A DNA stretch of 64,000 nucleotides from Eledone cirrhosa (lineage: Eukaryota): NCBI GenBank assembly GCA_964016885.1, contig OZ024742.1, forward strand, positions 5,518,001-5,582,000. The letters are read 5' to 3'. A model generated the notes under the pieces. That model was given only the letters and a program-made list of their open reading frames with translations, searched no databases and was not told where the DNA came from. Below, in pieces: positions 3,471 through 63,892 of the stretch. How positions within the stretch are numbered: position 1 is the stretch's first letter; every line of letters begins with the position of its first letter. The position numbers were made by a program, and so were the translations under genes.

Positions 3471-3660
3471 TAATTGTTTCTACTTTAAGCACAAGGCCAG
3501 CAATAACCCAGTGCATTACTGGTACTTTATTTTATCGACCCCGTAAGGATGAAAGGCAACGTTAACCTTGACGGGATTTGAACTCAGATCGTAAAGGGAC
3601 GTAACTATGCTGGAAAGCATGGCGTCCGACCCTCTACCGATACTGCCAATCCACCACCCT
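3471..3660 (-). mobile_element. tRNA-derived SINE
   Basis: Minus strand reads TGGCAGTATCGG (A-box-like) ... GAGTTCAAATCC (B-box), then GCCTTTCATCCTTACGGGGTCGATAAAATAAAGTACCAG; several copies in the window. Confidence 0.88.
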
Positions 3661-4508
3661 AGCATGGAGTCCGACCCTCTACCGATACTGCCAATCCACC
3701 ACCCTAGCATGGCGTCCGACCCTCTACCGATACAGCCAATCCACTGCCCTAGCATGGCGTCCGACCCTCTACCGATACTGCCAATCCACCACCCTAGCAT
3801 GGCGTCCGACCCTCTACCGATACTGCCAATCCACCACCCTAGCATGGCGTCCGGCCCTCTACTGATACTACCAATCCACCGCCCTAACATGGCGTCCGAC
3901 CCTCTACCGATACTGCCAATCCACCACCCTAGCATGGCGTCCGACCCTCTACCGATACTGCCAATCCACCGCCCTAACATGGCGTCCGACCCTCTACCGA
4001 TACTGCCAATCCACCGCCCTAACATGGCGTCCGACCCTCTACCGATACTGCCAATCCACCACCCTAGCATGGCGTCCAACCCTCTACCGATACTGCCAAT
4101 CCACCGCCCTAACATGGCGTCCGACCCTCTACCGATACTGCCAATCCACCGCCCTAACATGGCGTCCGACCCTCTACCGATACTGCCAATCCACCACCCT
4201 AGCATGGCGTCCGACCCTCTACCGATACTGCCAATCCACCGCCCTAACATGGCGTCCGACCCTCTACCGATACTGCCAATCCACCGCCCTAACATGGCGT
4301 CCGACCCTCTACCGATACTGCCAATCCACCACCCTAGCATGGCGTCCGACCCTCTACCGATACTGCCAATCCACCGCCCTAACATGGCGTCCGACCCTCT
4401 ACCGATACTGCCAATCCACCGCCCTAACATGGCGTCCGACCCTCTACCGATACTGCCAATCCACTGCCCTAACATGGCGTCCGACCCTCTACCGATACTG
4501 CCAATCCA
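3616..4508 (-). repeat. 45-bp tandem array (about 20 copies) derived from the SINE 5' head
   Basis: Unit agcatggcgtccgaccctctaccgatactgccaatccaccaccct is essentially identical to the SINE head at 62701-62745. Confidence 0.95.
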
Positions 4509-10177: not shown

Positions 10178-10244
<67 letters not shown>

Positions 10245-10251
<7 letters not shown>

Positions 10252-11197
10252 GATATTAATAAATGGAAACTATATTTATAAAACCATATTTATTTCATTA
10301 TACATATTTCAGGGATACCAAATTAAATTATGGTATGCCTTCATCAGACAAAATACAATATATAACAGTTTTACAAATAAGCTTTGACGTACCCTATTAA
10401 AATGCAACCATTGTTTTGGGAAGTCATCCGGATAGTGAATTGTTTATATAACTTTAATAAGTCATAGTGTTAAGGACAATTAGAAAAAGACGGAGAGAAA
10501 GAAAAAAGACGGAGAGAAAGAAAAAACGTGGAGAAATATCGGAGAGAGAGAGAGATGTATGGAGAAAAAAAGAAAGAGATAGGTAAAGACAGGAGGAAAG
10601 GAAGAAAGAAGAAAAAAGGAAGAAATAAGAAAAACAGAGGAAAGCAACAGAGAGATATTAGGTCAACAGACAGATAGAAAAACTCAAGAGAGAGAAATGT
10701 TATATATAGAGAGAGGGAGATTATGAAAACTTTACGTCATGTCATGTTAAGTTGAGTTAACAATTCATATGAAATGAATAATAAAAATATAAATATTAAT
10801 ATTCATGAATGGGACATAGATATATAATATGAGAAATTAAACATTGTTTAATAATGACTATATGTTTAGTTTAAAACTTGAGAGCGATGCCTGATGACGC
10901 ACGCAGATATTTATTTATACATATATAGGTGTATATGTATATATGTGTGTGTATGTATATGTGTGGGTAAAAGTTATGTTGCATAACCACGCAGTTTGGA
11001 TTGCAGAAATGTTAAATGCATGAATGGTAATCATATATACGAAGTCATGCATGTTAATCGTATATATTTATGTGTATATATACTGTGAACTTTTTATAAT
11101 ACAACGAATGTATAGCAATGATTAAGAGAAATCGTCTGCGCTTTATATGTCTATATTGTTGACTTGAGTAAATATAATTTCTATTTTCAGGACGTGC

Positions 11198-11251
<54 letters not shown>

Positions 11252-11995
11252 GTATCTTTGCCTGAGATACTTTTCTAGCAATGTGTACATTTTGGAGATT
11301 AAACCCAAATTTTGGTATATTGATCTCAAGGTTTAAACTAAACATATAGTCATTATTAAACAATGTTTAATTTCTCATATTATATATCTATGTCCCATTC
11401 ATGAATATTAATATTTATATTTTTATTATTCATCTCATATGAATTGTTAACTCAACTTAACATGACATGACGTAAAGTTTTCATAATCTCCCTCTCTCTC
11501 TATATAACATTTCTCTCTCTTGAGTTTTTCTATCTGTCTGTTGACCTAATATCTCTCTGTTGCTTTCCTCTGTTTTTCTTATTTCTTCCTTTTTTCTTCT
11601 TTCTTCCTTTCCTCCTGTCTTTACTTATCTCTTTCTTTTTTTTCTCCATGCATCTCTCTCTCCGATATTTCTCCACGTTTTTTCTTTCTCTCCGTCTTTT
11701 TTCTTTCTCTCCGTCTTTTTTCTTTCTCTCCGTCTTTTTTCTTTCTCTCCGTCTTTTTCTAATTGTCCTTAACACTATGACTTATTAAAGTTATATAAAC
11801 AATTCACTATCCGGATGACTTCCAAAAACAATGGTTGCATTTTAATAGGGTACGTCAAAGCTTATTTGTAAAACTGTTATATATTGTATTTTGTCTGATG
11901 AAGGCATACCGTAATTTAATTTGGTATCCCTGAAATATGTATAATGAAATAAATATGGTTTTATAAATATAGTTTCCATTTATTAATATCGTATA
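10245..11995. mobile_element. Inverted duplication (arms about 10245-10880 and 11330-11995) of a PLE pLTR-like repeat with HHR-like core
   Basis: Arms are near-perfect reverse complements of about 640 bp; CTGATGA-AGGCATACC...GGTATCCCT-GAAA at 11895; same family as 58805-61680. Confidence 0.85.
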
Positions 11996-12079
11996 TCTAC
12001 TCCAAATACTTGTCGAGTGCTTCATATCAGTTATAAAAATATTTACTTGTTGTATCCCAACAATTTTAAATAGAACTTT

Positions 12080-12141
<62 letters not shown>

Positions 12142-51800: not shown

Positions 51801-51997
51801 TGTAGCTACAGTAATGTGTGTGTGTGAGACTGTAGCTACAGTATTGTGTGTGTGTGTGTGTGACTGTACCTACAGTATTGTGTGTGTGTGTGTGACTGTA
51901 GTTACAGTATTGTGTGTGTGTGTGAGACTGTAGCTACAGTATTGTGTGTGTGTGTGTGACTGTAGCTACAGTATTGTGTGTGTGTGTGACTGTAGCT
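34913..51997. repeat. 17 kb compound satellite: palindromic core ACTGTAGCTACAGT + ATT + variable (TG)n; roughly 500-550 units (estimate)
   Basis: Direct reading; unit about 25-50 bp depending on (TG)n length; variant cores (ACTGTAACT, ATTGTAGC, ACTGAAGC) recur in blocks. Confidence 0.98.
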
Positions 51998-52121: not shown

Positions 52122-52565
52122 TATTAGAACTGGTGCTCTGAAATAGCTATATATATATGAATGTATATACAGTGTATTTTGCAATACACTGTATGCTTTA
52201 TTAATAGCATTTTGAAGACATTACGCTATTGTTTTAAAATAGTAACTTTGTCACTATTTCAGAGCACCAATTCTAATTTTCAATTTTTGCTGGACGGTCA
52301 ACCGGTCTGTATAATCAGTTCCTGATTATTACTGCAATTCTATAAGAATCCAACATTCAAAATTTCCAGCAGGCAAAGCGGGTACTAAGCTCTGAGGAGT
52401 ACCAACAGTACGAAACAGAGATCTGTCAGCTTATCTCCCTTTGTTTGCTGAAAAAAGAAGTAAGTGACATAGTCACTACTTTAAAACAATAGCGTAAGGT
52501 CTTCAAAATGCTATTAATTAAGCATACAGTGTATTGCAAAATACACTGTATACACATTCATATAT
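52122..52565 (+). mobile_element. Diverged retrozyme-like monomer (about 52255-52565) preceded by an inverted partial copy (52122-52255)
   Basis: 52155-52255 is the reverse complement of about 52462-52565; HHR at 52392; shares tttcagagca, cagttcctg, ttctataag and ggtcttcaaaatg with the 311-bp unit. Confidence 0.85.
52386..52433 (+). ncRNA. Type I hammerhead ribozyme
   Basis: TAAGCT-CTGAGGA-GTAC-caaca-GTAC-GAAA-CAGA-ga-TCTG-TC-AGCTTA: three perfect stems and a GUC cleavage site at 52427. Confidence 0.92.
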
Positions 52566-52579
52566 ATATATATATATAT

Positions 52580-52941
52580 ATATGTGAATATAGACATAGA
52601 ATATTCGAAAATATTCTGTATGTTTATAATAAACATTTTGAAGACCTAATCGCTATAGAATAGAATACGTCACGTATTACAACTAGATTCTCGATAAAAG
52701 CAAGGGAAGTAAGTCTACGCGTTTCATTCTTGTTAGAATTCATCAGGACTACATATCCAGTGCTTTCATCGAGAATGACACAGCTAGAGACTTATAGAAT
52801 ACTTAGCTGTGTACAGGAACTGGTTTGAAAGAGCGGTTGCCGGTCCGGCAGAAATTAGAAATTGGAATAAATGCTCTGAAATAGCGATATATATGTGAAT
52901 ATAGACATAGAATATTCGAAAATATTCTGTATGTTTATAAT
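52580..52941 (-). mobile_element. Inverted copy (about 1.15 units) of the 311-bp HHR monomer
   Basis: Reverse complement of the array unit; HHR on the minus strand at about 52709-52752 (gtaagtctacgcgtttcattcttgttagaattcatcaggactac). Confidence 0.93.
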
Positions 52942-52949
52942 CAAAATTA

Positions 52950-55900
52950 TCTTCAAAATGTTTATTATAAACATACAGAATATTGTCGAATATTCTATGT
53001 CTATATTCACATATATATCGCTATTTCAGAGCATTTATTCCAATTTCTAATTTCTGCCGGACCGGCAACCGCTCTTTCAAACCAGTTCCTGTACACAGCT
53101 AAGTATTCTATAAGTCTCTAGCTGTGTCATTCTCGATGAAAGCACTGGATATGTAGTCCTGATGAATTCTAACAAGAATGAAACGCGTAGACTTACTTCC
53201 CTTGCTTTTATCGAGAATCTAGTTGTAATACGTGACGTATTCTATTCTATAGCGATTAGGTCTTCAAAATGTTTATTATAAACATACAGAATATTTTCGA
53301 ATATTCTATGTCTATATTCACATATATATCGCTATTTCAGAGCATTTATTCCAATTTCTAATTTCTGCCGGACCGGCAACCGCTCTTTCAAACCAGTTCC
53401 TGTACACAGCTAAGTATTCTATAAGTCTCTAGCTGTGTCATTCTCGATGAAAGCACTGGATATGTAGTCCTGATGAATTCTAACAAGAATGAAACGCGTA
53501 GACTTACTTCCCTTGCTTTTATCGAGAATCTAGTTGTAATACGTGACGTATTCTATTCTATAGCGATTAGGTCTTCAAAATGTTTATTATAAACATACAG
53601 AATATTTTCGAATATTCTATGTCTATATTCACATATATATCGCTATTTCAGAGCATTTATTCCAATTTCTAATTTCTGCCGGACCGGCAACCGCTCTTTC
53701 AAACCAGTTCCTGTACACAGCTAAGTATTCTATAAGTCTCTAGCTGTGTCATTCTCGATGAAAGCACTGGATATGTAGTCCTGATGAATTCTAACAAGAA
53801 TGAAACGCGTAGACTTACTTCCCTTGCTTTTATCGAGAATCTAGTTGTAATACGTGACGTATTCTATTCTATAGCGATTAGGTCTTCAAAATGTTTATTA
53901 TAAACATACAGAATATTTTCGAATATTCTATGTCTATATTCACATATATATCGCTATTTCAGAGCATTTATTCCAATTTCTAATTTCTGCCGGACCGGCA
54001 ACCGCTCTTTCAAACCAGTTCCTGTACACAGCTAAGTATTCTATAAGTCTCTAGCTGTGTCATTCTCGATGAAAGCACTGGATATGTAGTCCTGATGAAT
54101 TCTAACAAGAATGAAACGCGTAGACTTACTTCCCTTGCTTTTATCGAGAATCTAGTTGTAATACGTGACGTATTCTATTCTATAGCGATTAGGTCTTCAA
54201 AATGTTTATTATAAACATACAGAATATTTTCGAATATTCTATGTCTATATTCACATATATATCGCTATTTCAGAGCATTTATTCCAATTTCTAATTTCTG
54301 CCGGACCGGCAACCGCTCTTTCAAACCAGTTCCTGTACACAGCTAAGTATTCTATAAGTCTCTAGCTGTGTCATTCTCGATGAAAGCACTGGATATGTAG
54401 TCCTGATGAATTCTAACAAGAATGAAACGCGTAGACTTACTTCCCTTGCTTTTATCGAGAATCTAGTTGTAATACGTGACGTATTCTATTCTATAGCGAT
54501 TAGGTCTTCAAAATGTTTATTATAAACATACAGAATATTTTCGAATATTCTATGTCTATATTCACATATATATCGCTATTTCAGAGCATTTATTCCAATT
54601 TCTAATTTCTGCCGGACCGGCAACCGCTCTTTCAAACCAGTTCCTGTACACAGCTAAGTATTCTATAAGTCTCTAGCTGTGTCATTCTCGATGAAAGCAC
54701 TGGATATGTAGTCCTGATGAATTCTAACAAGAATGAAACGCGTAGACTTACTTCCCTTGCTTTTATCGAGAATCTAGTTGTAATACGTGACGTATTCTAT
54801 TCTATAGCGATTAGGTCTTCAAAATGTTTATTATAAACATACAGAATATTTTCGAATATTCTATGTCTATATTCACATATATATCGCTATTTCAGAGCAT
54901 TTATTCCAATTTCTAATTTCTGCCGGACCGGCAACCGCTCTTTCAAACCAGTTCCTGTACACAGCTAAGTATTCTATAAGTCTCTAGCTGTGTCATTCTC
55001 GATGAAAGCACTGGATATGTAGTCCTGATGAATTCTAACAAGAATGAAACGCGTAGACTTACTTCCCTTGCTTTTATCGAGAATCTAGTTGTAATACGTG
55101 ACGTATTCTATTCTATAGCGATTAGGTCTTCAAAATGTTTATTATAAACATACAGAATATTTTCGAATATTCTATGTCTATATTCACATATATATCGCTA
55201 TTTCAGAGCATTTATTCCAATTTCTAATTTCTGCCGGACCGGCAACCGCTCTTTCAAACCAGTTCCTGTACACAGCTAAGTATTCTATAAGTCTCTAGCT
55301 GTGTCATTCTCGATGAAAGCACTGGATATGTAGTCCTGATGAATTCTAACAAGAATGAAACGCGTAGACTTACTTCCCTTGCTTTTATCGAGAATCTAGT
55401 TGTAATACGTGACGTATTCTATTCTATAGCGATTAGGTCTTCAAAATGTTTATTATAAACATACAGAATATTTTCGAATATTCTATGTCTATATTCACAT
55501 ATATATCGCTATTTCAGAGCATTTATTCCAATTTCTAATTTCTGCCGGACCGGCAACCGCTCTTTCAAACCAGTTCCTGTACACAGCTAAGTATTCTATA
55601 AGTCTCTAGCTGTGTCATTCTCGATGAAAGCACTGGATATGTAGTCCTGATGAATTCTAACAAGAATGAAACGCGTAGACTTACTTCCCTTGCTTTTATC
55701 GAGAATCTAGTTGTAATACGTGACGTATTCTATTCTATAGCGATTAGGTCTTCAAAATGTTTATTATAAACATACAGAATATTTTCGAATATTCTATGTC
55801 TATATTCACATATATATCGCTATTTCAGAGCATTTATTCCAATTTCTAATTTCTGCCGGACCGGCAACCGCTCTTTCAAACCAGTTCCTGTACACAGCTA

Positions 55901-56161
55901 AGTATTCTATAAGTCTCTAGCTGTGTCATTCTCGATGAAAGCACTGGATATGTAGTCCTGATGAATTCTAACAAGAATGAAACGCGTAGACTTACTTCCC
56001 TTGCTTTTATCGAGAATCTAGTTGTAATACGTGACGTATTCTATTCTATAGCGATTAGGTCTTCAAAATGTTTATTATAAACATACAGAATATTTTCGAA
56101 TATTCTATGTCTATATTCACATATATATCGCTATTTCAGAGCATTTATTCCAATTTCTAAT
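52950..56161 (+). mobile_element. Tandem array of 311-bp HHR-containing units (10 full + about 0.3), retrozyme-like
   Basis: tcttcaaaatg recurs at 52950, 53261, 53572, 53883 ... 56060 (period 311); each unit has one HHR; no ORF of 60 aa or more. Confidence 0.95.
53153..53196 (+). ncRNA. Type I hammerhead ribozyme (first of ten, repeated every 311 bp)
   Basis: GTAGTC-CTGATGA-ATTC-taacaa-GAAT-GAAA-CGCG-TA-GAC(t)TAC; predicted cleavage after GUA at 53189. Confidence 0.9.
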
Positions 56162-56175
56162 ATATATATATATTT

Positions 56176-56828: not shown

Positions 56829-56881
<53 letters not shown>

Positions 56882-57039
56882 GTTATATAGTAAGGTGTAT
56901 TATTGGTTGTGTCATACGGTCCATTAAACATTTGTTAGCAATATTAAGTTCTCCACGCTATTGTATATCTCCAATTCCATTTATGGGAACAGCTAGATGA
57001 TGTAAAACGGAGTATTTGTATCAAAATAAAGATCCGAAG

Positions 57040-58432
57040 GCATGGTATAAATTTCCAATCATTTTAATCACGACACATGTTTCAATAAGAGATAGATCGA
57101 TCGTGTGGTCATGATCGATTATCACTGATCTCATCAGGTGAATAATGAAATGTCTTCAAATCTTTGATATGAGGGAGGAAAAACTAACGATGTTTACTCA
57201 CTAAAGTGTTGTTCCCCATATGAAGATTCAGCATACCTAGTTAGTAAATAGTTAGAACAATTAAGACTGATTACGCGCATTCACCATTACTTTAGAATAC
57301 CCTAACCATTGAGTCCTCTCGGTTAGTAAATAGTTAGATGTATTACACACTCAGTTAAGAACAATTACGCTCTTTATACATAATTCTACACGCAGTACCC
57401 GGTTTCTTTAGACACGGAGTTCTCACAGTTATGACTGGTCACGATCTTATCAATTAAATACTACACTAGGTTTGTGGAGTGCTCACAGTTGCTGAATGGA
57501 CAATACTACTTACACGCCATCAATGGGCCCATGACACTTACACACATCTCCGGAGTTTTGTTATTTTATTTTATTTTGTGTTGGGTAACACACCTCCACC
57601 ACTCAAACACTTATCTTAAAAGCCCGAGGGCTCATATGACGGGAAAACGCACACACTGACACCTTAACTCAAATACCCAACCCTACATGGAGCCCCTTGG
57701 TGGCCTACATGGCGAGTGCTTGCACGCACAGACTCGGGGACTCAGATTCTAACGGGACAACGGCACATACAGAGTTCGATACGAGCTGACTACTTGCTCT
57801 ACACATGGATGTGTATATACCAAAACATACACTATTTAGACGATACGGATGTTACAATTCAATCGATACACGTATAGCAGAACGTTGAACAGAATTTACT
57901 TGCGTGTGTATAGGGTTGTGGTTGATCCAATTTTTCTAATTTACATCGTTAAAATCGAGATTTGACCAATATAACATTGTTGACCAATATAACATTGTTG
58001 TTTTGTAACTTAACTTTCGGTGCATACTGTGTTGGTATATATATTTTTCTCTGACCTCGCGTCGGTGTGTGTGAGTGTGTGTGTACTCACTCACACTAAT
58101 TGTGACCGACCGAAATTCTACAGATCTGATGCTGAGATTAGACCTGTCCAGCGTCTTTTACAGCTATTGAGAGATAAAGACTTGATAGATTTATGACCCT
58201 GACTGAAGACGATGGCAGTCGGCGTGTTTTGGCTGCTGAATCTTCATATGGGGACAGAACTCTAGTGAGTGAACATCGTTAAATTTTCCTCCCTCATATC
58301 AAAGATTTGAAGACATTTCATTATTCACCTGATGAGATCAGTGATAATCGATCATGACCACACGATCGATCTATCTCTTATTGAAACATGTGTCGTAATT
58401 AAAATGATTGGAAATTTATACCATGCATTCGG
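57040..58432. repeat. Inverted repeat (arms about 57040-57232 and 58234-58432), each arm carrying an HHR-like motif
   Basis: gcatggtataaatttccaatcattttaat...gaagattcagca is mirrored at 58234-58428. Confidence 0.88.
57068..57141 (-). ncRNA. Type I hammerhead motif with long stem II (second copy 58325-58398, +)
   Basis: Minus strand: TCAC-CTGATGA-[gatcagtgata ATCGATC atgaccacac GATCGAT ctatctcttatt]-GAAA-CATGTG-TC-GTGA. Confidence 0.7.
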
Positions 58433-58484
58433 ATGTTTATTTTGATATATATATATACATATATATATATATACATATATATAC

Positions 58485-58801: not shown

Positions 58802-58804
58802 ATA

Positions 58805-61680
58805 TATATACAATATTAAATAAATGGAAAACTATATTTATAAAACCATATTTATTTCATTATATATATTTCGGGGATATTATATTAACATTATGCTATG
58901 CCTTCATCAGACAAAATACAATATAAACAGTTTTATAGATAAATAGATTCGACATACCGTAATAAACACCGACTTCATTTGAAGAGGTTTACGCTAGCAG
59001 TGAAAATTTTATACAGAGAGAAAGAAAGAGAGAAAAAAGAAAGAAAGACAAAACGAAGAAAAGGAAGAAAAAGAAGAAAAAGAAGAAAAAGAAAAAGAAG
59101 AAATGCATGGAACAAAATAGAGAGATGGAAAGATAGATAAAGCGAAGAGCTTCATGTAAAGAAACAGAAAGAGATATAAATATATAGAGAGAGAGGAAAT
59201 AGAGATAGATACATATATATATAGAAAATTAGGTAGTGGGAGGTCATTTTGAGTAAATGTATCAATGATACATTTATTTATTTATTTATTTATTTAGCTC
59301 AAGTATTAATGTAAGGGAGATATATATATAGAGAAAAAAAAAATATAGAGAGAGGAAAAAAAATAGCGAGAGAAAAAATTTAAAAATAGCCAGACATATT
59401 CGAGGCGTAAAAAACCCTATGTTTTAATGTATTAGTATTTATAAAACTTACACTATATTGTAAATATCAGTATTCCTGAATGAAACAAGTATCCATAATG
59501 TGTGAAAATTAATTATCTTATGTTTAGTTTTAAAAAATTCATATGTTTATGTGACAGCTACAAACATCCATGCGAATCCAACTGATTCACTCTGCAAACT
59601 CTAAATTACCGGAAAACATTCTCAATGTGGTATAAAAATTTGAGCGTATTATTATTCCTGTCATTACTCTACAAGATTATCTATCAAGCAGAAATAGAGA
59701 GCAGATTTCAATATACTAATAAAAATATATATTATATTATAAACAAAACTAAAAATAAAAAGATAACAATAATAATAATAAGTAAAAATATAGAATAGAA
59801 AAAAAAAAAAAAAAAAAAAAAATATTACGAAAGAATATTACATAATAAAAATATTACATATTAAAAATACTACGTATTAAAAAATATTACGTATTAAAAA
59901 TTTACATATTAAAGATATTAAAAATAATTAAAAATAAAAATAAAAAATAAAAAAATATTATAGAATACTACAATACTAAAAAATAAAAATAAAAATAAAA
60001 ATAAAAATAAAAATAAAAATAAACCACAGAGAACAACCCTTCAAAGTTAATTGACAATATATTGCCAAGTTCATTACAAGACAAAGCCAAAAATTATCTA
60101 TCAAATCACATCTAGCAAAGAACATTTCAAAAAGATTATGATGTCCAATTAGGTCTACATATGTTCTTATATTTAATATAGAAGTTTATCTAGTGTAAGG
60201 TTAATTCAAAAAATTTGGAGCATCAGCTTTTAGGGTAGCTTAATTTTTCATGAGGAATGTTTAGATAAAAATAAAATAAAAATAAAAAGAGGGAATCAAA
60301 GATTTAGGAATCAAAAAATTTATCGGCTAGTTCTCATATAAATATAAATCAAACTAAATATACTACATTTTAAATTTAAATTTATATTTAAACGTTGAGT
60401 TTAATCTATGTTTGCAGCAACTGAATAAATTTGTCCGTAGGTTAAGGGAATTTTTAGATTTTAGTATAAAGAATATCTCCTCTGCGCAGAGGTCACATGT
60501 CTCAGAGGATGAATTATTTTTTAGTATTGTAGTATTCTATAATATTTTTTTATTTTTTATTTTTATTTTTAATATCTTTAATATGTAAATTTTTAATACG
60601 TAATATTTTTTAATACGTAGTATTTTTAATATGTAATATTTTTATTATGTAATATTCTTTCGTAATATTTTTTTTTTTTTTTTTTTTTTTCTATTCTATA
60701 TTTTTACTTATTATTATTATTGTTATCTTTTTATTTTTAGTTTTGTTTATAATATAATATATATTTTTATTAGTATATTGAAATCTGCTCTCTATTTCTG
60801 CTTGATAGATAATCTTGTAGAGTAATGACAGGAATAATAATACGCTCAAATTTTTATACCACATTGAGAATGTTTTCCGGTAATCTAGAGTTTGCAGAGT
60901 GAATCAGTTGGATTCGCATGGATGTTTGTAGCTGTCACATAAACATATGAATTTTTTAAAACTAAACATAAGATAATTAATTTTCACACATTATGGATAC
61001 TTGTTTCATTCAGGAATACTGATATTTACAATATAGTGTAAGTTTTATAAATACTAATACATTAAAACATAGGGTTTTTTACGCCTCGAATATGTCTGGC
61101 TATTTTTAAATTTTTTCTCTCGCTATTTTTTTTCCTCTCTCTATATTTTTTTTTTTCTCTCTCTATATATCTCCCTTACATTAATACTTGAGCTAAATAA
61201 ATAAATAAATAAATAAATGTATCATTGATACACTTACTCAAAATGACCTTCCACTACCTAATTTTCTATATATATATGTATCTATCTCTATTTCCTCTCT
61301 CTCTCTCTATATATATATATCTCTTTCTGTTTCTTTACATGAAGCTCTTCGCTTTATCTATCTTTCCATCTCTCTATTTTGTTCCATGCATTTCTTCTTT
61401 TTCTTTTTCTTCTTTTTCTTCCTTTTCTTCGTTTTGTCTTTCTTTCTTTTTTCTCTCTTTCTTTCTCTCTGTATAAAATTTTCACTGCTAGCGTAAACCT
61501 CTTCAAATGAAGTCGGTGTTTATTACGGTATGTCGAATCTATTTATCTATAAAACTGTTTATATTGTATTTTGTCTGATGAAGGCATAGCATATTGTTAA
61601 TATGATATCCCCGAAATATATATAATGAAATAAATATGGTTTAATAAATATAGTTTTCCATTTATTTAATATTGTAAATA
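58805..61680 (-). mobile_element. 5'-truncated Penelope-like element with inverted pLTR: arms about 58805-59985 and 60514-61680
   Basis: Reverse-complementary arms of about 1.17 kb. The spacer holds a minus-strand GIY-YIG C-terminus. HHR-like cores lie near the outer ends (about 58860-58912 minus; 61571-61626 plus). Confidence 0.88.
60363..60514 (-). pseudogene. C-terminal end of a PLE GIY-YIG ORF
   Basis: Manual translation NSSSETCDLCAEEIFFILKSKNSLNLRTNLFSCCKHRLNSTFKYKFKFKM* parallels ...FCNLCLLETHTIIFSNHNLLNKKSKVFASCQHR of the 13682 element. Confidence 0.8.
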
Positions 61681-61760
61681 TACTCCAAATATTTGTCGAG
61701 TGCTTTTATATCAGTTATAAATATTTACTAGTTGTAACCCAACAATTTTAAATATAACTT

Positions 61761-61794
<34 letters not shown>

Positions 61795-61801
<7 letters not shown>

Positions 61802-62055
61802 AATGGCTTCTACAGGACTAGAACTGTTTCATTCGAAGGAAATCATCAGGAAAGACGACTTTTCTCTAAATATAGTTTTTTCAAAGAGTCCCCATTCTTT
61901 AAATCCATCAGCCAATAACCCCAACCCATCCCAATTACCACCTTCCCCACCACCAGAAAATGTATAAATCAACCATATCACATTGACAGACGCCTTTCCT
62001 GATGATTTCCTTCGAAAGAAACAGTTCTAGTCCCATAGAAGCCATTTCTATATTA
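61795..62055. repeat. Inverted repeat (arms about 61795-61857 and 61993-62055) with HHR-like core; third copy at about 32588-32640
   Basis: tttcctgatgatttccttcgaaagaaacagttctagtcc...agaagccatttctatatta and its reverse complement. Confidence 0.75.
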
Positions 62056-62122
62056 AATATTTATACTCTGCTATGTATTGAGTATCTTACTTACTGTGGT
62101 TGCCCCCGATTGAACCCGGGAT

Positions 62123-62337: not shown

Positions 62338-62745
62338 AATAATTGTTTCTACTTTAGGCACAAGGCCAGCAATTACCCAGTGCATTACTGGTACTTTATT
62401 TTATCGACCCCGTAAGGATGAAAGGCAAAGTCAACCTCGGCGGGATTTGAACTCAGATCGTAAAGGGAGGTAACTATGCTGGAAAACATGGCGTCCGACC
62501 CTCTACCGATACTGCCAAATAATGATAATAATAATAATGGTTTCTTATATAGGCACAAGGCCAGCAATTTTGGGGGAGAGGAAAAATCGATTAAATCGTT
62601 ACTGGTGCTTTATTTTATCGATCCCGTAAGGATGAAATGCAAAGTTAACCTTGGCGAGATTTGAACTCAGATCATAAAGGGCCGTAACTCCATGCTGCAA
62701 AGCATGGCGTCCGACCCTCTACCGATACTGCCAATCCACCACCCT
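62338..62745 (-). mobile_element. Two tandem tRNA-derived SINE copies (about 62338-62518 and 62535-62745)
   Basis: Both carry A-box-like TGGCAGTATCGG and B-box GAGTTCAAATC. Confidence 0.88.
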
Positions 62746-63231: not shown

Positions 63232-63892
63232 TGTCGCTCAAAATAAACTCTTCGGTCAATGATCGCGCAAGTCTTAAAACAATGTGCACTTTTCGTCGCT
63301 CAAAATACCCCCAGGGCATCATTGCTCAAGTCTTAAAACAATGTGCACTTTTCGTCGCTCAAAATACCCCCCAGGGCATCATTGCTCAAGTCTTAATACA
63401 ATGTGTACTTTTCGTAGCCCAAAATACGCCCAGGGCATCATTGCTCAAGTCTTAAAACAATGTGTACTAGTTCGTCGCTCAAAATACCCCCAGGGCATCA
63501 TTGCTCAAGTCTTAATTCAATGTGTACTTTTCGACGCTCAAAATACGCCCAGGGCATCATTGCTCAAGTCTTAATACAATGTGTACTTTTCGTCGCTTAA
63601 AATACCCTCAGGGCATCATTGCTCAAGTCTTAATACAATGTGTACTTTTTGTCGCTCAAAATACATTCTTTCCCAGGTTATCATTACTCAAGTCTTAATA
63701 CAATGTGTAATTTTCGTCGCTCAAAATACCCCCAGGCCATCATTGCTCAAGTCTTAAAACATTGTGTACTAGTTCGTCGCTCAAAATACCCCCAGGGCAT
63801 CATTGCTCAAGTCTTAATACAATGTGTACTTTTCGTCGCTCAAAATACACTCTTTCCTAGGTTATCATTGCTCAAGTCTTGATACAATGTGT
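63232..63892. repeat. About 59-64-bp minisatellite, about 11 copies
   Basis: Unit cagggcatcattgctcaagtcttaatacaatgtgtacttttcgtcgctcaaaatacccc. Confidence 0.93.

Follow-up and report, generated by a model that had tools for sequence, protein, structure and literature searches.

Within a 64,000-nucleotide stretch of the Eledone cirrhosa genome (assembly GCA_964016885.1, contig OZ024742.1, positions 5,518,001 to 5,582,000 of the forward strand; hereafter, the window), positions 52576-56161 are occupied by a non-coding type I hammerhead repeat, i.e. a retrozyme of the non-LTR type (LTR, long terminal repeat), lodged in a (TA)n tract. In the assembly, the insertions of this family consist of two outward-pointing arrays of a 311-bp unit; one arm and no more than one bears a tail, the inner breakpoints differ from case to case, and a haplotype is common to both arms. 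These properties indicate that the non-coding retrozyme is very probably mobilized by a Penelope-like element (PLE). The best overall explanation, which we regard as probable, is that the retrozyme is copied into (TA)n in trans by a PLE reverse transcriptase (RT)/GIY-YIG protein from one circular RNA monomer; that a single circle is read from two start sites is, as a detail of this scheme, fairly likely. The mobilizing protein, the RNA circle and its cleavage are what we infer or predict from the arrays.

The window insert displays the inverted copy, the linker and the tandem array within (TA)n that had been described in the original prediction (Table 1). With the monomer numbered from window position 53261, the inverted arm, an exact copy, runs outward from position 15 to position 69 and ends in a short, tail-less terminus, the last 8 nt of which (ATATATAT) blend into the target (TA)n. 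The units of the forward arm vary among themselves at a single base (52985). Positions 52941-52947 repeat 7 nt found at 52953-52959 in the forward arm, and the linker looks like a templated repair insertion. The outer ends of the array are unequal, with termini at positions 69 (inverted arm) and 102 (forward arm), and this end-to-end tail difference (~35 nt), missing from the earlier annotation, was found here. The palindrome anticipated at the junction is present, with arms of 373 nt rather than ~330 bp (99% complementary, with a loop of 8 nt), and its giving rise to double-stranded RNA (dsRNA) is structurally possible; Rfam microRNA matches at this junction fell far under thresholds and reflect the palindrome only. 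The array carries no open reading frame (ORF), its longest stop-to-stop frame being 59 aa inside the array and 78 aa when spanning the junction, and the RT plus GIY-YIG ORF of an autonomous PLE is absent from it. As had also been claimed, the neighboring relative, referred to as family B, is laid out in the same way (Table 1).

The core and helices of the hammerhead are present in all units of the window array. The motif occupies monomer positions 204-247, with a predicted cut after GUA at position 240, and recurs each 311 bp up to 55995; one minus-strand copy is found at 52709-52752. The minimum-energy fold of a 401-nt stretch encompassing two motifs is a double hammerhead whose palindromes pair between copies (z -5.85, 100 shuffles), and such dimer dependence is typical of animal type I hammerheads (PMC4209133). 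The sole whole-insertion variant located within CUGANGA falls on the free position N7. The GC content of the unit is 35%, and the energy of its predicted circular fold is -67.3 kcal/mol, compared to -46.7 +/- 4.8 kcal/mol for 60 shuffled sequences.

Exact-pattern searches of the 3.0-Gb assembly, in which control patterns read backwards gave 0 matches, returned 13,134 ribozyme cores. Tailed ends in (TA)n numbered at least 1,006; for short ends, one pattern gave 510 and another up to 1,207, the latter count containing some internal units. Near-identical arrays are spread over many contigs; the retrozyme family is real and young, and we estimate it at ~1,500 insertions totaling ~4 Mb. At least 1,187 tailed ends belong to the relatives B and C, of which 23 of the 27 distinct insertions inspected were inverted, with shorter arms. 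One family C relative lies in the window itself (27311-27692), where it consists of 1.2 units between (TA)n runs, has its own hammerhead, and shares 67% identity with the 311-bp unit.

The layout of the insertions was mapped in 158 regions comprising the window, 17 loci chosen by identity, 78 tail-anchored loci taken in list order along C1 (with a few listed matches skipped or already covered), 20 short-end loci without an exact tailed partner, two loci chosen by rare variants, and 40 further, consecutive short-end loci also taken in list order. The counts exclude second copies, duplicated or partial, that were present in L136, L150, L177, L222 and L256; L151 and L165 represent the two ends of a single 15-kb insertion. 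A short end was paired with a tailed end in all 132 resolved inverted insertions; one end was preset by the query in 116 of them, and the remaining end was always of the opposite type. Short ends fall at monomer position ~60-69, and tailed ends range from 89 to 102 around the commonest position given in Table 1. Inversion was found in the window and in 13 of the 17 identity-chosen loci, in 71 of the 74 resolved tail-anchored loci (three being single-armed and four more unresolved), in both variant-chosen loci, and in 36 of the 40 consecutive short-end loci (three single-armed, one with a 12-nt remnant); the set of 20 short-end loci, which is biased against inversion, yielded nine inverted and ten single-armed insertions and one open case. 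Four additional regions likewise proved to be short plus tailed, including a suspected short-short exception at C1:22.024 Mb (L258). (TA)n was present on both flanks in 128 of the 132 insertions, the anchored end being TA by query design and the other end unconstrained. Inversions and (TA)n targets thus recur in other copies of the element, and the layout, found in 132 of the 158 regions, is not a product of chance. As a side observation, L160 and L250 are seemingly single-armed, yet retain a 9-12-nt inverted tail remnant at the opposite end.

Among the 131 simple cases, arms measured 0.13 to 27 units, and both arms exceeded one unit in 106. Arm lengths and breakpoint were individual to each insertion, and the flanks were not mirrored. 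Inner breakpoints were scattered over the unit in a mildly non-uniform manner (Kolmogorov-Smirnov p 0.03); the cleavage site showed no enrichment (7 of 262 inner ends versus 9.3 expected), for which reason RT run-off at the ribozyme cut was rejected, and 16 of 131 cases deviated from mirror symmetry by 15 nt or less, versus 13.1 expected (p 0.23). Breakpoints that vary in this manner, neither mirror-symmetric nor at the cleavage site, argue against both fold-back and an assembly chimera, the latter judged on assembly data alone. The two arms overlapped by at least 2 nt in 66 of 131 junctions, compared to 18% in an exact random-pair null, an excess that may be overstated since BLAST overlaps tolerate mismatches; extra insertions were found in 30. 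The tailed arm appeared to be the longer one in early samples (p 0.02-0.03), an effect that vanished in the full set (medians of 3.3 and 3.8 units, p 0.35). In one locus, a 259-bp (TA)n-like tract lies within the inter-arm junction (L240:5436-5695). The tail found in 132 of 132 insertions, the (TA)n on both sides and the variable inner breakpoints together support the mobilization in trans by PLE machinery put forward in the original prediction.

Both arms carried one haplotype in 81 of 84 informative insertions, compared to 576 of 6,972 cross-locus pairs (8.3%). Of the variants that were fixed in one insertion of the sample only, 24 in number, 22 were present in both arms. The variant of the window had 22 matches in the genome, corresponding to all 11 ribozyme-bearing units of the window insert, all seven units of both arms of another insertion with a different background, and four lone units; a second rare variant had 18, 10 and 1 matches. 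Rare variants were found either in one unit or throughout a whole insertion, which is the pattern predicted by a one-monomer bottleneck followed by repeated copying. Judging from these sequences, both arms likely derive from one monomer template, a putative circular RNA. In the first 114 loci, A-to-G changes represented 10 of 28 whole-insertion variant sites versus 10 of 110 lone-unit changes (p 0.0012), a tally in which the polarity of common variant sites may be wrong; the excess was not replicated in 40 held-out loci (1 of 8 new sites; 11 of 36 versus 14 of 152 when pooled). A-to-I RNA editing of the template, which an A-to-G excess on the ribozyme strand might reflect, is a doubtful and unreplicated lead only.

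In the mechanism that we propose, tandem transcripts would form the predicted double hammerhead and release 311-nt monomers that circularize. A PLE protein would then cut both (TA)n strands and prime from both 3' ends; the two start sites, fixed and separated by ~35 nt, would lie immediately downstream of the conserved hairpin; each RT would circle the same template 0.1 to 27 turns, and the two cDNA ends would be joined through microhomology or templated-insertion repair. The PLE protein studied in PMC11167929 cuts and extends both strands of AT-rich DNA, is predicted to form a dimer, and primes from two adjacent internal RNA start sites that bound the tail, and the insertions described here agree with this two-start, both-strand reaction. 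We lean slightly toward seeing in them a genome-scale record of PLE integration, in which a dimer would cut (TA)n, two RTs would copy one circular ribozyme RNA, and their products would be joined.

Table 1 Features of the window insert and of related elements in the window. Positions are those of the window.
Feature	Positions	Strand	Remarks
Inverted arm, 1.18 units	52576-52941	-	366 bp, 0 mismatches to the monomer
Junction linker, 8 nt	52942-52949		From sequence
Forward arm, 10.33 head-to-tail 311-bp units	52950-56161	+	Ends at monomer position 102, the tailed terminus
One-sided tail, 42 nt in the window array	56120-56161	+	Commonest family end gives 35 nt (monomer position 95; 107/132 insertions)
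Left (TA)n target	52559-52583		Also borders the short end of the neighboring family B element
Right (TA)n target	56162-56173		From sequence
Type I hammerhead motif, first unit	53153-53196	+	CUGAUGA core, 5-bp helix II, GAAA, palindromic ACGCGU helix III
UUCG-capped hairpin, every unit, just upstream of the short terminus	56081-56110	+	Relatives B and C have a hairpin at the equivalent place, with another stem and loop
Older related retrozyme, family B	52122-52570		Inverted 0.43 unit plus tail 52122-52258 (-); 1.0 unit 52250-52570 (+); hammerhead 52386-52433
Separate 5'-truncated inverted Hydra-clade PLE	58803-61763		1.19-kb arms; ORF remnant 60363-60515 (-); ~82-nt one-sided tail 61682-61763

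Several observations weigh against the copying of one self-cleaved RNA circle by a PLE. The arms were mixed in three of the 84 informative insertions. In L138 (508-4526), at unit position 206 in a UAG context, the tailed arm carries A in its outer four units and G in the inner two while the other arm is all G, a switch compatible with a change of template in the course of copying or with a crossover at a later time. In L186, a different haplotype is found in the two outermost units of each arm; a template swap would explain this, but a linear mixed multimer or subsequent recombination would do so equally well. The arms of L192 differ at one site. Scattered recurrent variants in the long arrays L128, L129, L151, L234 and L254 suggest block duplication after insertion. 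The unit has no Rfam match at threshold, with only a sub-threshold HH9 hit (17.8 bits, E 0.35), and it is missing the G10.1-C11.1 pair, called highly conserved in PMC4209133, such that its self-cleavage counts as a prediction; in a 2026 preprint (bioRxiv 10.64898/2026.07.22.740005), one of nine tested retrozyme dimers was cleaved. Target-site duplications are unreadable within (TA)n, and the microhomology excess is subject to the caveat given above. Finally, the autonomous PLE with a pseudo-LTR (pLTR) homologous to the monomer that the original prediction called for did not come to light, whether among the termini of nine PLE sequences compared with the repeat using shuffled alignments (lowest p 0.066, none significant) or in the 1.07 Mb of fetched loci, which were scanned by profile and by BLAST.

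The explanation that comes closest to the preferred one retains mobilization by a PLE and replaces the circle by a linear multimer, on which both start sites would be used with no circling by the RT; such a template could be produced by read-through of a homogeneous source array or by RNA-to-RNA rolling-circle copying. Uncleaved RNA was the main in vitro substrate in PMC11167929, and RNA-to-RNA replication has been reported for a plant retrozyme (PMC9695139). The change of haplotype after the same two outer units in both arms of L186 is in line with this explanation, as is the rare variant that L145 and L179 have in common on one background, in parent/daughter-like fashion. The window haplotype, in contrast, was found in no other multi-unit array of the assembly, and the 24 variants fixed over whole single insertions in the sample imply that a linear multimer would have to pass through a bottleneck of one monomer immediately prior to its amplification; no variant confined to a lone unit of an array was seen to recur in register in other insertions, although no systematic test of this was made. 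On balance, we consider a linear template unlikely.

Twin priming of the L1 type also yields an inverted segment and junction microhomology, the second priming site being variable. A (TA)n-targeting long interspersed nuclear element (LINE) acting in this way, the PLE-like look of the insertions being convergent, would account for these two features and sits well with the fact that no PLE partner has been identified; it is made improbable by the two fixed sites, 35 nt apart within the unit, at which the arms start where a variable second site would be expected, by the lack of any 3' tail, whether poly(A) or a simple repeat, that would belong to the RNA itself, and by the ORF-bearing PLEs of the same genome, whose layout is identical and whose tails are family-specific. 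If one cDNA folded back or primed itself, as in the self-priming model of PMC3846280, the inverted arm would arise with no second priming on RNA. This would account for the common haplotype through a single cDNA source and for the nearly mirror-symmetric junction of the window (positions 15 and 1); that paper also describes palindromes where PLE copies are joined in inverted orientation. Fold-back predicts mirror junctions, of which no excess was found, and either arm may be the longer one; this origin is largely disfavored and seems to us very improbable. The least credible proposal is an origin at the DNA level, be it an in-place homogenized satellite, a DNA transposon of the foldback or miniature inverted-repeat (MITE) kind, an autonomous PLE that has this unit as its terminal repeat and of which truncated ends are seen, or an assembly chimera: signs of local block duplication in some long arrays, the duplicated insertions present in L136 (next to an N gap) and L222, and the mapped fraction of the family (158 regions out of roughly 1,500 insertions) can be invoked in its favor, but arm lengths and breakpoint are unique to each insertion, unlike those of a cut-and-paste element, the flanks are unmirrored and the short/tailed pairing strict, and an arm ran into a PLE ORF in 0 of 158 regions, both arms being longer than one unit in most cases.

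With regard to the nearby PLE, the original prediction had placed an ORF-bearing PLE of the same layout at 58805-61680. The PLE and its layout stood; the ORF is reduced to its last 50 codons, and the right end lies ~82 nt further, the element extending as a one-sided tail (Table 1). These codons match, without any difference, the C-terminal end of an ORF of 745 aa (L098; open at L098-L100) displaying the motifs RWR, DKT, CNC-X5-C, CDLC and CKH. It is by these motifs that we assign the element to the Hydra clade, for which PMC8557442 describes a C-terminal endonuclease with a CxC-X5-C linker, terminal CxxC and CxH motifs, and DKT and RWK-like motifs. Pfam gave no match for the 745-aa Hydra-type protein and nothing relevant in six-frame translations of the two Hydra-type copies of the window; the second of these is an inverted insertion at 10243-12100 that is related to the Hydra-type terminus and has a ~90-nt one-sided tail, with no ORF remnant found. 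From a remote search with the protein, 13 relatives emerged (31-38% identity), none informatively named. Being truncated, the copy at 58803-61763 cannot supply the mobilizing protein. It was rejected as a partner on this count, for its ~85-nt tail (Hydra-type tails measuring about 82-90 nt), and for having no significant similarity to the 311-bp repeat; its family is probably not the partner.

The genome has other PLE families with long open RT plus endonuclease frames, in numbers exceeding those sampled in the partner search; among them are Neptune-type and other RT plus GIY-YIG families, several with tails of ~35-45 nt. No partner match emerged from a catalogue of tails and a survey of GIY-YIG and Hydra loci. 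In one chimeric inverted insertion (L274:1-1523; G000:C1:22609366 onward), a family B arm is followed by 58 nt of inverted B sequence and then by another PLE family's GIY-YIG end and 3' region; both of its outer ends are tailed, and copies of the joined PLE family are ~97.5% identical. As a hint to the partner, this single case is a lead only. The likeness of the B/C tail to this PLE family was not significant (p 0.46-0.84), and 29 further loci with members of this family yielded no similar chimera; in one of them (L307), a separate C copy lies nearby.

Other repeats were noted in the window. A 17-kb satellite at 34913-51988 is made of ~500 copies of a ~34-bp unit in which (TG)n is combined with a short palindromic sequence (ACTGTAGCTACAGT). 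Two small inverted (TA)n elements with CUGANGA...GAAA motifs and one-sided extensions are located at 56880-58453 and 61800-62120, and the fetched loci contain many such small inverted element families, each with its particular tail length. Tandem arrays of a 59-60-bp unit (10 copies) and of a 45-bp unit (20 copies) lie at 63268-63892 and 3618-4508, respectively, the latter unit matching part of a dispersed repeat at ~62490-62740.

Retrozyme circular RNAs, the proposal that PLEs mobilize retrozymes, and the inversion, tail and (TA)n bias of PLEs are already known. Non-LTR retrozymes and their circular RNAs were described in PMC7229834 (Cervera and de la Pena 2020), where RT on circular RNA and mobilization by PLEs were proposed; the latter was also proposed in the 2026 preprint (Li, Clavereau and Pollet), the evidence there being PLE co-occurrence and pLTR phylogeny in vertebrates. 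What appears to be new here, as far as the literature searched is concerned, is the presence of insertion-level PLE footprints on a retrozyme family: no report of inverted or tailed retrozyme insertions or of arm haplotypes was found in a search that left out most subscription journals and all supplements, including figure S9 of PMC7229834. Both PMC8557442 and PMC11167929 treat as unresolved the way in which the inverted arm and one-sided tail of PLEs originate, and ~1,500 young insertions of one 311-nt unit make both this question and that of retrozymes riding PLEs via circular RNA countable. The family supplies a large and simple data set on the formation of PLE insertions and names a minimal substrate for in vitro PLE assays, namely the hairpin and two start sites on a small circle. 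If the proposed mechanism is true, the inversion and the tail of PLEs would be obligatory partners, and the insertions would provide insertion-level evidence for retrotransposition from circular RNA in animals. The ~4 Mb of long palindromes could also be a source of dsRNA.

Compared to known systems, the E. cirrhosa family shares with the metazoan non-LTR retrozymes of PMC7229834 and the preprint non-coding tandem units (150-450 bp in those reports), a type I hammerhead, a low GC content, a stable predicted circular fold, and co-existence with PLEs. Inverted double arrays, a one-sided tail and arm haplotypes are not described in the available text of these reports (the word "inverted" occurs 0 times in that of PMC7229834), and the preprint relies on pLTR phylogeny whereas no homologous pLTR was found here. 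With endonuclease-positive PLEs (Penelope/Poseidon, Neptune, Hydra and Naiad; PMC8557442, PMC3846280, PMC11167929), the family has in common an inverted 5'-truncated copy, a one-sided tail of 30-40 bp and (TA)n targeting, as well as a type I hammerhead with a palindromic helix III (PMC4209133); it differs from them in having no ORF and in that both of its arms are concatemers of a short unit, where PLE arms are ORF-bearing partial tandems. In being non-coding and in forming multicopy head-to-tail insertions moved by a PLE, it finds its counterpart in the non-autonomous Chlamys PLEs, e.g. MRC1 (PMC8557442).

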